From: an uncultured Trueperaceae bacterium
Lineage (GTDB): Bacteria; Deinococcota; Deinococci; Deinococcales; Trueperaceae
DNA length: 64,000 nucleotides
Direction: 5' to 3'
Assembly (NCBI GenBank): GCA_963727505.1
Contig: CAVSGP010000006.1
Location: forward strand, 96,001-160,000
Shown: positions 37,769-44,561 of the stretch, in pieces
How the letters are laid out: each line of letters starts with the position of its first letter
Numbering within the stretch: the stretch's first letter is position 1
Notes under the pieces: model-generated
What the model saw: the letters and a program-made list of their open reading frames with translations, nothing else
What the model was told of the DNA's origin: nothing
The model's database searches: none
Translations under genes and position numbers: made by a program

Positions 37769-39001
37769 TTACTGGAGCGCGCTGGCCGGGAGGATGGTGA
37801 CATCCGTCCAGGCGCCGTCCTTGACCTGTCGGATGGCGAAGGGCGCGGTGATGTTGCCGTAGGCATCGAAGTCGATCGGCCCCACCAGACCCTGGTAGTT
37901 GATCTCCTTGCCGGCCTCCAACGCCTTCTTGCCGGACGTGTAGTCGGTGACCTGGACCTTGCCGTCGCCGGGGTCGGCGACCGCGCGGATGTTCTGCGTC
38001 ACCGTGGTGCGGTTGACGGCGCCGTCCTTGATCTGGGCGCGCAGCATGGCCAGCGCCAGCACGTTCATCGCGTCGTAGGTGTTGGTGCCGAAGATCTGCA
38101 CGTCCTTGCCGCTGTAAGCCTTGAAGCGCTGCTTGAAGGCGTCGTTACGGGCGGCCGATTCCGGGGAGGCGACCTCCTCCAGGCCGTAGATGCCGTTGGC
38201 GAGCTGCGGCGTCGCGAGCTTGATGAAGTCGGCGTTGGTCTGGTCCTGGGTCACGAACCAGGTGCCCTGGTAGCCGGCCTGGAAGGCCGCCTGCATGATG
38301 CGCACCGAGTCCTCGGGGGTGCCCACCAGCACGATCACGTCGGGATTGTGCGAGAGGGCGTCCTGCACCTCGGAGCGGTAGCTCGGCTTGCCCGGCGCGT
38401 ACTCGAGCGTCGCCTTCGCGGGCATGCCGTACTTCTCGAACGAAGTCTGCAGCGGGCTCTCGAACGACACCATGGCCGGCGACTTGGCGACCATCAGCAC
38501 CGGCGACGTGAAGGCCTGCGCACGCGCCAGGTACTTTGCGTCGGTGGCCGCGCGAGCGATGGCCCGCCCGCCCAGCGAGTCCGACGGAACGGTTCGGAAG
38601 AAGACCTTCGTGCCCGCCCTGTCGAGCTCGGTCGTGCCGGCCGTGGGGGAGACCATCGGCACGCCGGTGTCCTGGATGAGCTGCTTGGAGCCCGAGAACG
38701 ACAGCGAGGTCGGACCCAGCAAGGCGACGGCGTTGTCGACGTTGATGAGCTTCTGTGCGGCGGTGAAGCCGGCGTCCACGGTGCCCTCGGTGTCGCCCTG
38801 ACTGAAGACGATGTCACGCCCGCCGATGCCGCCGGACTGGTTCACCTCGTCGGCGATCATCTGGGCCACGGGCTGGACGTTCGCTCCCACCCAGTCGTAC
38901 TGACCGGTGAACGGGAGCAGGATGCCGACCTTGATCGAACCCCCCTGTGCGAGGGCGACGGTGGTCAGAACCGCAGCGAGCAACGTGATGGCGCGTCTCA
39001 T
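37769..39001 (-). CDS. ABC transporter substrate-binding protein (LivK/J-like)
   Basis: MRRAITLLAAVL signal peptide, IKVGILLPFTG, FFRTVPSD, YDAM, YQGLVGPIDFD; SD AGGAGG. Confidence 0.9.
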   Translation of the reverse strand: MRRAITLLAAVLTTVALAQGGSIKVGILLPFTGQYDWVGANVQPVAQMIADEVNQSGGIGGRDIVFSQGDTEGTVDAGFTAAQKLINVDNAVALLGPTSLSFSGSKQLIQDTGVPMVSPTAGTTELDRAGTKVFFRTVPSDSLGGRAIARAATDAKYLARAQAFTSPVLMVAKSPAMVSFESPLQTSFEKYGMPAKATLEYAPGKPSYRSEVQDALSHNPDVIVLVGTPEDSVRIMQAAFQAGYQGTWFVTQDQTNADFIKLATPQLANGIYGLEEVASPESAARNDAFKQRFKAYSGKDVQIFGTNTYDAMNVLALAMLRAQIKDGAVNRTTVTQNIRAVADPGDGKVQVTDYTSGKKALEAGKEINYQGLVGPIDFDAYGNITAPFAIRQVKDGAWTDVTILPASALQ

Positions 39002-39150
39002 GGGACCTCCTGACATCGACGTGGATACCTGGGACCTGCTGCGTGCAGGGCGGAGGGAGTGGACCTTCGCGACGGAAGGGTTTGCGTGGGAGTCTAGCAC
39101 GGCGGCCGTCCGGCGCGACGGGCTCAGCGCCGGGGGCGGGCGCGACGCGC

Positions 39151-41118
39151 TCAGCGCACTTCGCTGCCGTCGGGAAGGTCGGCCTCCAGCGTGGCCACGC
39201 TGAGGTTCCCCGCCTCGTCCTCCGCGGCCAGGATCATCCCCTCGGAGCGCACGCCGCGTAGTGTCACCGGCTTGAGGTTGGCCACCAGGATGAGCTTCTT
39301 GCCGACGAGGTCGCCGGGCGCGTAGTGCTCCCGGATGCCCGAAACCACGGTGCGGGTCTCCGGGCCCATGCGGACGGTGAGCACCAGCAGCTTGTCGGCG
39401 TTGGGGTGGGGCTCGGCCTTCTCGACGGTGACGACCCGGAGCTCGACCTGCCCGAAGTCGTGGATGGAGATCTCCGCTTTGTGCTCCAGCGGCTCGGACT
39501 CGGGCTCGGCCATGGCCTTCTCGAGGGCCTCCAGATCGATGCGTGGGAACAGCGGTTCGCCGGGAGAGGACTGCGTGCCGGCGGGCACCAGCCCCCACTG
39601 CGCCGCGCTGTCGAGTTCGAAGGGGACGCGCTTGATGCCGAGCTGCTTGCGCAGCTCGCGTGCCTTGCCCGGGATCACCGGCTCGAGCAGGATGCTGGCG
39701 CAGCGCAGCGCCTCCACGCAGGTGTTGAGCACGGTGTCGAGGCGCCCCGCCTGAGCGGGGTCCTTGGCGAGTTCCCAGGGGGTGGTCTCGCTGATGTACT
39801 TGTTGGCCTTGCGCACCGCTTCCATCACGGCCTCCAGCGCGCGGTCGAACTGGAGGTCGTCGAAGCGCTGCCGCACCAGCGCCGGCAGGCCGGTGAAGCT
39901 GGCCTTGAGTTCCTCGTCCAAGGGCTCGAGGGCGCCCGCGGCAGGGACCACCCCGTCGCGGTAGCGTGCCAGCATGCCGAGGGTGCGGTTGAGCAGGTTG
40001 CCCAGGTCGTTGGCCAGGTCGGAGTTGATGCGCTCGGCGATGCCCGCTTCGCTGAAGCTGGCGTCGAGACCGAAGTTCATGTCGCGCAGCAGGTAGTAGC
40101 GGAAGGCGTCGTTGCCGTACTTCCGTTGCAGGTCGAGCGGCCGGATGACGTTGCCCAGCGACTTGCTCATCTTGCGTTCGTTGACGAGCCAGTAGCCGTG
40201 CACGTTGAGGTGGTGGTACAGCGGGATGCCCGCCGCCTTGAGCATGATCGGCCAGAACAGGCCGTGGGGCTTGACGATGTCCTTGGCGATGAAGTGCTCC
40301 ACGTGCGGCCAGTAGCGTTCCTCCAGACCCCTGGAGGCGAGCGCCGAGTAGTAGTTGATGAGGGCGTCGAACCACACGTAGGTGACGTGCTCGTCGTCCC
40401 ATGGCAGCGGGATGCCCCAGGGCACGCGCTTGCGCGGCCGGCTGATGGAGAGGTCGCCGATCGGCTCGCGCAGCATGGCGAGCACTTCGTTGCGGTAGCG
40501 CTCGGGGCGGATCAGCTCGGGGTTCTCCTCGAGCGTCTCGCGCAGCCACGGCCGGTACTTCTCCATGCGGAAGAAGTAGTTCGCCTCGGTCCGGTACTCG
40601 GGGGGCTCGTCGGACTCCGGGCACTTGCCGTCGACGATCTCCTTCTCGGTCACGAAGCGCTCGGCGCCGACGCAGTAGAGGCCGGAGTACTCGCCGTAGA
40701 AGATGTCGCCGTTGTCGTAGACGCGTTGCAGGACGTCGCGCACGACCTTCTGGTGGCGCTCCTCGGTGGTCCGGATGAACTCGTCGTACTGGATGCCGAG
40801 TCGATCCCAGGTCGCGCGGAACTGCGCCGCCACGTCGTCGACGTACTGCTGCGGGGTCTTGCCCGCCTTCTCCGCGGCCTTGGCCACCTTCTCGCCGTGC
40901 TCGTCGGTGCCGGTGAGGAAGAAGGTGTCGTCGCCCAGCAGCCGATGGAAGCGCGTGACGACGTCGACCAGCGTGGTGGTGTAGGCGTGGCCGATGTGCG
41001 GAGCGGCGTTGACGTAGAAGATCGGGGTGGTGGCGTAGAAGCTGCCGCCTCGACGTTTCTCCTCGGCCTCGCTCTGCCGTTCGGGGCGTGCGTCCGCAGG
41101 GGTCTCGACTGTCTCCAT
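39151..41118 (-). CDS. metG: Methionine--tRNA ligase with C-terminal tRNA-binding domain
   Basis: TTPIFYVN, HIGH, TGTDEHG, YVWFDAL, KMSKS, LANDLGNL, C-terminal HPNADKL...SEGMILAA; SD GGAGG before ATG 41118. Confidence 0.97.
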   Translation of the reverse strand: METVETPADARPERQSEAEEKRRGGSFYATTPIFYVNAAPHIGHAYTTTLVDVVTRFHRLLGDDTFFLTGTDEHGEKVAKAAEKAGKTPQQYVDDVAAQFRATWDRLGIQYDEFIRTTEERHQKVVRDVLQRVYDNGDIFYGEYSGLYCVGAERFVTEKEIVDGKCPESDEPPEYRTEANYFFRMEKYRPWLRETLEENPELIRPERYRNEVLAMLREPIGDLSISRPRKRVPWGIPLPWDDEHVTYVWFDALINYYSALASRGLEERYWPHVEHFIAKDIVKPHGLFWPIMLKAAGIPLYHHLNVHGYWLVNERKMSKSLGNVIRPLDLQRKYGNDAFRYYLLRDMNFGLDASFSEAGIAERINSDLANDLGNLLNRTLGMLARYRDGVVPAAGALEPLDEELKASFTGLPALVRQRFDDLQFDRALEAVMEAVRKANKYISETTPWELAKDPAQAGRLDTVLNTCVEALRCASILLEPVIPGKARELRKQLGIKRVPFELDSAAQWGLVPAGTQSSPGEPLFPRIDLEALEKAMAEPESEPLEHKAEISIHDFGQVELRVVTVEKAEPHPNADKLLVLTVRMGPETRTVVSGIREHYAPGDLVGKKLILVANLKPVTLRGVRSEGMILAAEDEAGNLSVATLEADLPDGSEVR

Positions 41119-41157
41119 GTGGTCCTCCGAGGTTCGGCCGGGAAACGCCCGTGTGCC

Positions 41158-41188
41158 AAGAAAGAAGGGCGCCGTCCAGACGGCGCCC
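41158..41188 (-). terminator. Intrinsic terminator inside the metG leader (attenuator)
   Basis: Minus strand GGGCGCCGTC-TG-GACGGCGCCC followed by TTCTTTCTT, about 40 nt upstream of the metG start. Confidence 0.8.
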
Positions 41189-41211
41189 ATGACCCTTCCG
41201 AGCGCACCCGC

Positions 41212-41253
41212 TCAGTCGGATCCAGGGCGGCATCCCGTCATTCGCCGGTTCAT
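41212..41253 (-). CDS. Candidate metG leader peptide MNRRMTGCRPGSD
   Basis: TAGACT -10 box (41261-41266) 7 nt before ATG, the same spacing as other leaderless genes; followed by the terminator. Confidence 0.6.
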   Translation of the reverse strand: MNRRMTGCRPGSD

Positions 41254-41409
41254 GGCAACGAGTCTAGCAGACGGCGCGGGTGACCTTCGATCCACGGGCA
41301 GGTGGGCGGCGCGCGAGCCGATGCGCCCTGCCCGGCCGGTGGCGCGCAACCGGCCGGGGTCGTCGCCCGCAGTGAGGGCGTCCCGTGGTCGTGGTGGCAC
41401 AATGGGGGC

Positions 41410-44561
<3,152 letters not shown>

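Follow-up and report, generated by a model that had tools for sequence, protein, structure and literature searches.

A probable leader-peptide transcription attenuator of metG, with a leaderless reading frame, in Trueperaceae and related Deinococcota

The stretch of 64,000 nucleotides (nt) analyzed here, called the window, belongs to an uncultured Trueperaceae bacterium (contig CAVSGP010000006.1, positions 96,001 to 160,000). On its minus strand it carries metG, the gene of the methionyl-tRNA synthetase (MetRS), and directly before metG a compact leader with a short open reading frame (sORF) and an intrinsic terminator. This element is probably a ribosome-read (leader-peptide) transcription attenuator of metG. 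The reading of this putative switch is supported by comparative evidence, i.e., the conservation of the element, the covariation of its stems, the fixed spacing of its codons, its single-copy linkage to metG and the predicted fold of the naked RNA. A sequence-only reading of the same DNA had proposed such a leaderless attenuator with methionine (Met) codons, and all the comparative evidence gathered speaks in favor of that proposal.

In detail, and with all positions on the minus strand unless a plus is given, the promoter shows an extended −10 box, TGCTAGACT (41269-41261), in which TAGACT occupies 41266-41261 with TGC directly before it. The box ends 7 nt before the ATG of the sORF, and this spacing suggests that the transcript of the sORF would be leaderless. 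The sORF, MNRRMTGCRPGSD*, is located at 41253-41212 and consists of 13 codons and a stop (ATG AAC CGG CGA ATG ACG GGA TGC CGC CCT GGA TCC GAC TGA). The codon pair CGA-AUG (Arg4-Met5; 41244-41239) is the presumed sensing site. Codon 6 is ACG (Thr) in the window, and most relatives have a second AUG at this place. The terminator hairpin, GGGCGCCGUC-UG-GACGGCGCCC (as DNA, GGGCGCCGTC-TG-GACGGCGCCC), lies at 41188-41167 and is followed by the U-tract UUCUUUCUU (as DNA, TTCTTTCTT) at 41166-41158. The competing structure is an antiterminator (41229-41184), indicated by folds and covariation and formed by three pairings: an outer one of CGCCC (41229-41225) with GGGCG (41188-41184), a middle one of GAUCC (41222-41218) with GGGUC (41195-41191), and an inner one of CUGAGCG (41215-41209), with the stop codon inside, with CGCUCGG (41204-41198). 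The GGGCG at 41188-41184 constitutes the first 5 nt of the terminator and is thus common to both structures. The sequence elements named by the sequence-only reading were all found, base for base, at their places on the minus strand.

From this arrangement we infer the start of transcription, the translation of the sORF, the footprints of the ribosome and the response to methionine, as follows. Transcription would start at or beside the A of the sORF ATG, and the sORF would be translated without a 5′ leader. The naked leader would fold into a rod, in which the 3′ half of the sORF is paired with the 5′ arm of the terminator and the GGCG of the sORF with its 3′ arm. The rod would block the terminator and RNA polymerase would continue into metG. 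A ribosome that reaches the stop codon would cover the whole sORF strand, the terminator would form and transcription would end. When charged Met-tRNA is short, the ribosome would stall with AUG5, the codon after CGA, in its A site, or initiation on the 5′ AUG would fail. In either case the antiterminator would persist and more MetRS would be produced. The sensed step may be the stall at Met5, the initiation on the 5′ AUG, or both.

The structure of the leader is not a matter of chance. The 87-nt leader (41253-41167) folds with −49.2 kcal/mol, as compared with −35.2 ± 3.2 kcal/mol for dinucleotide shuffles (z −4.36), and none of 200 shuffles reaches this stability; the minimum-energy structure accounts for 69% of the ensemble. 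A longer fold of 157 nt, which includes the start of metG, has a z of only −1.29, and the leader alone was taken as the meaningful folding unit. In the naked fold of the 87 nt, CGCCC (nt 25-29) and GGAUG (nt 19-23) pair with the terminator 5′ arm and GGCG (nt 8-11) pairs with the 3′ arm. Since the strand of the sORF engages the two terminator arms, the naked RNA is antiterminated. The GGCG is located within the sORF at 41246-41243, its partner CGCC within the terminator 3′ arm at 41171-41168, and their pairing lengthens the antiterminated rod. Both strands are nearly invariant, hence beyond the reach of covariation.

Two pairings had been put forward in the sequence-only reading as the basis of the antiterminator. 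The minimum-free-energy fold contains the first, of CGCCCUGGAUCC with GGGUCAUGGGCG. The second, of GACGG with CCGUC, is possible in the sequence of the window, but relatives carry other letters at these places and the pairing is not conserved. The CAU within GGGUCAUGGGCG was also considered as a mimic of an anticodon for the binding of MetRS, a candidate that was rejected, as this CAU is not conserved.

The stems of the antiterminator show covariation. A first MAFFT alignment (A1), made from 23 leaders of several families, aligned the hairpin region poorly and was superseded by two others, i.e., A2, which was produced with MAFFT and not fitted to a structure, and A3, which is model-fitted and holds 41 matches in 40 distinct rows. 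The antiterminator was tested as the sum of the outer stem GCCCUG/CAGGGC, the middle stem and the inner stem. On A2, 90.0% of its cells are paired, compared with 24-50% when the partner is slid, and the covariation score is 0.338 against 0.195 after shuffling, with 0 of 500 shuffles reaching 0.338. On the 40 distinct rows of A3, 89.6% of the cells are paired, 10 of the 13 pairs are changed on both sides (compensatory) and the score is 0.413 against 0.177 after shuffling (0 of 500; slid controls 0.03-0.12), all of them counts which lean toward the modelled structure to which A3 was fitted. The outer stem defines the competition with the terminator, and 3 of its 6 pairs are changed on both sides in A3. 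For instance, its U-A pair appears as UA in 21 rows, UG in 7, CG in 5 and GC in 2.

When RNAalifold was applied to A2, the terminator was predicted together with an inner hairpin that holds the stop codon, and 8 of the 14 pairs were compensatory. The terminator stem itself (GGGCGCC/GGCGCCC) is almost invariant, with 7 consensus pairs of which 2, at both ends, are compensatory. This near-invariance is as expected, because the strand must pair with two partners. The antiterminator which excludes the terminator by taking its 5′ arm, a further proposal of the sequence-only reading, is in agreement with the 5 shared nt, with the covariation on both A2 and A3, and with the naked full-length folds, where the base of the terminator forms in 4 of 31 leaders. 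The aligned metG upstream regions of Deinococcota contain both the conserved Met codon and the covarying stems which that reading had led one to expect.

An independent pattern scan of 40900-41600 revealed 2 terminator-like sites, where 0.1 are expected from shuffles. The terminator of the metG leader is among them, with a stem of 9 pairs (8 of them G-C) and a U-rich tail (41188-41158). The upstream neighbor of the leader is divergent, a plus-strand ORF at about 41410-43077, and therefore no gene ends at this terminator.

It may still be asked whether the sORF and its terminator are an independent small gene or small RNA, which would have a terminator of its own and regulate nothing, in which case metG would be expressed by leaky read-through or from an unseen promoter. 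The second of the two 5′ ends listed for the ligase gene of Deinococcus deserti, −182 (the start of the leader) and −53 (Table S3 of de Groot et al. 2014, PMC4007540), lies downstream of the leader and is in line with such an explanation. Against it, no TAnnnT box is present in the 39 nt that separate the U-tract from the metG ATG, and a promoter scan finds no promoter there; 5 nt belong to both the antiterminator and the terminator, and the antiterminator covaries; and the peptide is poorly conserved outside R-M and P, unlike a functional small protein. Taken together, an independent small gene is very improbable.

Several features point to the translation of the sORF. Among the 40 distinct leaders, 34 have a distance of 12 nt between the start codon and the conserved Met, and 36 have 27 nt between this Met and the stop. 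AUG is present at the aligned Met position in 38 of the 40, most of which have a second AUG. At the aligned stop position all three stop codons are found (TGA in 22, TAG in 7 and TAA in 5), and the changes of the stop are accompanied by changes in its pairing partners (pairs 63-78 and 64-77 of A2). The sORFs differ in length by steps of three, i.e., −3 in L014, −6 in L121, +3 in L023 and +24 in L016, and the codons between the conserved ones vary freely. The −10 box of the relatives is conserved as TGCTAnAnT, with the start codon 5-10 nt after it, which is the geometry of the leaderless transcripts mapped in D. deserti (PMC4007540).

These observations bear on an RNA switch independent of translation, in which the conserved GCGAAUGAUG and the hairpins would bind tRNA-Met, MetRS or a small molecule, leaving the frame as a by-product. 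The conservation of CGA-AUG at the nucleotide level exceeds what the peptide needs, and the thrS of Escherichia coli is a case of a synthetase that regulates itself by binding its own leader; both count for a switch of this type. On the contrary, a start codon at a distance fixed by the promoter, a spacing in threes, three stop codons at one position and variable codons that differ freely are marks of a reading frame. No conserved loop resembling the CAU anticodon is present, and the leader, of about 90 nt, is too short for the Stem I of a T-box. In addition, a search against Rfam over 40000-43500 at E values up to 10 found no T-box or S-adenosylmethionine (SAM) riboswitch, in accordance with the sequence-only reading, and no other family either. 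Its only hit was a sub-threshold one to a miRNA model on the plus strand inside metG, which was taken as chance. An RNA switch of this kind is therefore considered quite improbable.

The putative sORF, the predicted antiterminator and the terminator are conserved before metG across the families of the phylum that were sampled. MetRS is present in 41 of 41 related genomes. A rule-based scan was applied to the loci upstream of metG, which asked for a TAnnnT box, an ATG or GTG 5-11 nt further on, an ORF of 5-25 codons with an internal Met, and a T-run. The −10 box, the sORF with an internal Met and the terminator were found in this way in 23 of the 30 loci of relatives. In 80 further related loci there were 18 matches, 17 of which belong to the 30 loci that are Deinococcota-like (Deinococcota by title or at least 69% identical), where 7 more show the element by eye. 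The other 50 loci gave 1 match and serve as a rough control for false positives. In eight more genomes, the element is present in 4 of 4 of the family labelled f5 and, by eye, in 3 of 4 of f2, which, judged by its genus of 77 genomes, is presumably Deinococcaceae.

A covariance model (R1) was built from 23 leaders and represents the Trueperaceae form. It gave one match in the genome of the window and one match each in 14 of the 151 genomes sampled from the phylum. By family, and with the own genome excluded, matches were obtained in 10 of 12 genomes of f1 (the own family), in 1 of 8 of f3, in 2 of 82 of f2 and in 0 of 48 of f4. Because R1 represents the Trueperaceae form, the low counts outside f1 reflect divergence and not absence. 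All 14 matches lie immediately upstream of metG and on the same strand. Single matches, always before metG, indicate that the element is single-copy and tied to metG, and is not a repeat.

The codon pair at the presumed sensing site is near-invariant. Of the 40 distinct leaders, 33 have CGA directly before the conserved Met, 3 have CGG and 4 have another codon. The metG ORFs of these 40 loci use CGA rarely, for 50 of 1702 Arg codons (2.9%). The CGA-AUG unit is doubled in some leaders of Deinococcus, and the predicted folds leave the A of CGA unpaired. No paper describing a CGA before the conserved Met of a metG leader was found. In the genome of the window, CGA-ATG is the most under-represented pair of CGA and a following codon (9 observed against 60.7 expected), a result that is only suggestive and carries little weight, as it comes from uncurated ORFs that probably include spurious frames. 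In other leaders of this genome, CGA does not precede the candidate regulatory codon (for leuS, CGG stands before Leu; for pheS, GCC stands before Phe).

The tRNA genes of the genome give a possible reason for the choice of this codon. The anticodons of tRNA-Arg found with ARAGORN are ACG, CCG, CCT and TCT, plus one odd call of 88 nt with GCG; none is TCG. Since no tRNA-Arg(UCG) was found, CGA must be read via tRNA-Arg(ACG), presumably as ICG, through an I:A wobble pair. In yeast, according to the part of a preprint that was consulted (bioRxiv 10.1101/755652), an I:A pair in the P site distorts mRNA within the A site and slows the decoding of the next codon. It is possible, though doubtful, that CGA-AUG acts as a built-in sensitizer which lets a single Met codon serve as sensor. 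A rare synonymous codon cannot slow the decoding of Met, because methionine has one codon; it is the preceding Arg that is fixed, as CGA, instead. If true, the transit of the ribosome would depend steeply on the supply of Met-tRNA and, with the leaderless 5′ AUG added, the charging of both the initiator and the elongator Met-tRNA would be read. As a separate observation, ARAGORN found 47 tRNA genes in this genome, of which only two have the anticodon CAT; the assembly is 97% complete and one may be unassembled. Three tRNAs with this anticodon are usual, i.e., the initiator, the elongator and a tRNA-Ile read as CAT.

The positions of the ribosome were modelled in 31 leaders of the Trueperaceae type. 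These were folded as nascent transcripts that end before the terminator 3′ arm, with the 5′ end masked as covered by a ribosome, and it was counted how many nt at the start of the terminator 5′ arm, out of its first 5, are held by the sORF strand. With no ribosome, at least 4 nt are held in 28 of the 31 leaders. When the A site contains the conserved Met, 29 leaders keep at least 3 nt held and 21 keep at least 4 nt, and a ribosome placed at the stop leaves 0 nt held in all 31. Under the footprint that was assumed, the modelled positions fit the logic of an attenuator of the trp/pheM type.

Several points weigh against the attenuator reading. The footprint in these models was assumed to reach 12 nt, counted from the A-site codon's first base, and when the A site is moved one codon further, at least 3 nt are held in only 8 of the 31 leaders. 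The equilibrium fold with the ribosome stalled at Met5 prefers, in the window, the inner hairpin and the terminator (−38.9 kcal/mol), and the same is true in many leaders. Since the equilibrium of the stalled state favors the terminator, a stalled ribosome would give read-through only if the antiterminator forms first, a condition on which the trp leader likewise depends. The short leaders L027, L028 and L050 (MKGMPRR*), presumably of a Thermus type, have their internal AUG abutting the antiterminator strand; a stall there masks this strand, and therefore only failed initiation could give read-through in them. The branch of failed initiation may thus be more general than the stall at Met. The element is missing from 7 of the 30 metG loci of relatives (L009, L019, L021, L022, L024, L025 and L026). 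In L135 (genome G037 of f2, Deinococcaceae-like), the leaderless-looking sORF at the usual place upstream of metG, MSRLPLRPTPWPPLR, has no internal Met codon and is an exception to the rule of CGA-AUG. With Met5 as its only internal Met codon, the leader of the window falls short of classical attenuators, in which regulatory codons number two or more. The lean of A3 toward the structure to which it was fitted belongs here as well.

Some of these points would also suit an attenuator that is coupled to translation and reports the general capacity of translation or the availability of ribosomes, and not methionine, with a Met codon that is incidental or retained on other grounds. Antitermination is the default state of the naked RNA, so a lack of ribosomes alone gives read-through; the window offers one internal Met only; and in the short Thermus-like leaders the antiterminator is masked by whatever ribosome is on the sORF. 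However, the AUG kept at the aligned position in nearly all the leaders, with a second one in most, would be unexplained by such a general signal. Moreover, the element is linked only to metG, and other synthetase genes of the genome have their own, different sORFs. A purely general signal is thus unlikely, and the sensing of methionine by a ribosome on the sORF remains the preferred reading.

The sORFs before other genes of the same genome form a set of candidate sister designs. A genome-wide scan with the same type of rules gave 8 candidates, 5 of which precede genes of aminoacyl-tRNA synthetases (aaRSs) or of amino acid metabolism, as identified with Pfam. The five genes are metG, leuS, pheS (the alpha subunit), a class II D/K/N synthetase and an acetolactate-synthase-type thiamine pyrophosphate (TPP) enzyme. 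Before leuS (L127:16-84, contig C4, plus strand), there is a leaderless-looking sORF of 22 codons, MAFRRITFVHSQTRLARARPAG, and a terminator. It contains one Leu codon, the rare CTA, and also an unrelated CGA-ATC pair. Before pheS (L128:17-52, contig C9, plus strand), an 11-codon sORF, MRNRAVSAFTR, with one Phe codon (TTT) is followed by a terminator. The class II D/K/N aminoacyl-tRNA synthetase gene is preceded by a 20-codon sORF with GAC GAC AAT (Asp-Asp-Asn) and a terminator (L129:1357-1419, minus strand, contig C9). This sORF resembles the leader MFAALANNNDNDPH of the aspartate--tRNA ligase gene of D. deserti, as listed in Table S9 of PMC4007540. The ilvB-like gene of the TPP enzyme has before it a 23-codon sORF and a terminator (L125:18-89, contig C4), and this sORF is not obviously rich in branched-chain codons. 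As a whole, the sister set matches the 14 leaderless leader peptides described for D. deserti.

The remaining features of the locus are the following. The Shine-Dalgarno sequence of metG, GGAGG, is found in the sequence at 41128-41124. The putatively regulated gene itself extends over 39151-41118, with its ATG at 41118, and its product, identified with Pfam, is a methionyl-tRNA synthetase with a C-terminal tRNA-binding domain (PF09334 with E 5.9e-101, PF19303 and PF01588). The other terminator-like hairpin of the pattern scan, at 41022-41053 on the plus strand, falls within, and antisense to, the start of metG and is probably due to chance. Directly downstream of metG and on the same strand, the product of the ORF 37769-39010 is a periplasmic binding protein that belongs to Peripla_BP_6 (E 1.5e-43), which we take to be the family of branched-chain amino acid binding proteins.

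The product of the divergent plus-strand ORF (41410-43077), of about 555 amino acids, has a weak C-terminal match to Usp (E 1.8e-4, below the Pfam cutoff). Its likely ATG is situated 6 nt after CACAAT, and this gene may be leaderless too. A minus-strand ORF of 568 amino acids (41212-42918) has the same stop as the sORF. It was rejected as a spurious antisense frame of the divergent gene, so the leader is not its C-terminus. The 20 sequencing runs listed for 40700-41700 are DNA contigs, with no RNA among them.

The way in which the supply of synthetases is matched to demand is poorly charted in bacteria outside Firmicutes and Proteobacteria, and we know of no textbook mechanism for the control of metG. 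The comparisons suggest that one compact, leaderless and translation-read switch has been kept before metG across the sampled families of Deinococcota, with a strict geometry of 12 nt and 27 nt. Because methionine both initiates and elongates, its two pools could both be reported by a leaderless Met leader. A simple, testable idea for how one codon may suffice comes from the near-invariant CGA-AUG. The practical value is modest, i.e., a better annotation of metG leaders in the phylum and a clean model for attenuation on leaderless mRNAs.

Among the known systems, the attenuators of E. coli, i.e., pheST/pheM and trpL, hisL, leuL and thrL, share with the metG leader a short ORF with cognate codons and an intrinsic terminator before the gene, as well as an antiterminator that takes in part of both the terminator 5′ arm and the 3′ end of the ORF. 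The pheM leader is a precedent for a synthetase gene under leader-peptide attenuation. The metG sORF differs from them in being presumably leaderless, without a Shine-Dalgarno sequence, and in having one or two regulatory codons and not a run of them. The amino acid is methionine, so that its start codon is also cognate. A separate conserved 1:2 pause hairpin like that of trpL was not found in the 5′ half of the sORF, a region which pairs with the terminator arms instead; such a hairpin is a feature of the trp model and not general to attenuators.

T-box riboswitches are the usual control of synthetase genes in Firmicutes. They have in common with the metG leader a switch between terminator and antiterminator at the 5′ side of an aaRS gene, and they respond to the charging of tRNA. 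On the other hand, the metG leader, with a length of about 90 nt, has no Rfam match to the T-box (RF00230) and neither a Stem I nor a specifier loop, and the evidence points to translation and not to the binding of tRNA.

The closest relatives of the system are the leaderless leader peptides of D. deserti. The starts of transcription of this species were mapped by de Groot et al. (2014, Genome Biol Evol, PMC4007540), and 14 leaderless leader peptides were proposed there to act in attenuation. One of them, Deide_09379 (Table S9), is MMFRFLSKMRMLRCS, a peptide of 15 amino acids assigned to the methionine--tRNA ligase gene, with the start of transcription at the A of its ATG. Therefore, the view of the sequence-only reading that such a leader was undescribed for metG in this group does not hold, since it had been predicted in Deinococcus. 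A further description of a metG leader and a functional test were not found in the literature on Deinococcota beyond de Groot et al. (2014), although Lopatovskaya et al. (2010, Mol Biol 44:128) may bear on priority. In the part of PMC4833913 that was consulted, the phylum is mentioned only in a statistical survey of leader genes.

The two systems belong to the same phylum, concern the same regulated gene and follow the same proposed logic of attenuation. As in the Deinococcus type, the sORF stands directly upstream of an aaRS gene and has the cognate residue inside, which is Met here. Transcripts of the Deinococcus type begin at the start codon of the sORF or 1 nt ahead of it. The window represents a different family, Trueperaceae, and a form of 13 codons, x-x-R-M-M-x3-P-x3, as opposed to the 15 amino acids of MMFRFLSKMRMLRCS. 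The parts of PMC4007540 that were consulted contain neither a structure nor an analysis of covariation or distribution nor a functional test for the metG leader. In conclusion, the kind of element is already known as a prediction, and what is new here is its presence in another family, the covariation of its stems, the fixed spacing of its codons, its distribution in the phylum and the CGA-AUG pair.

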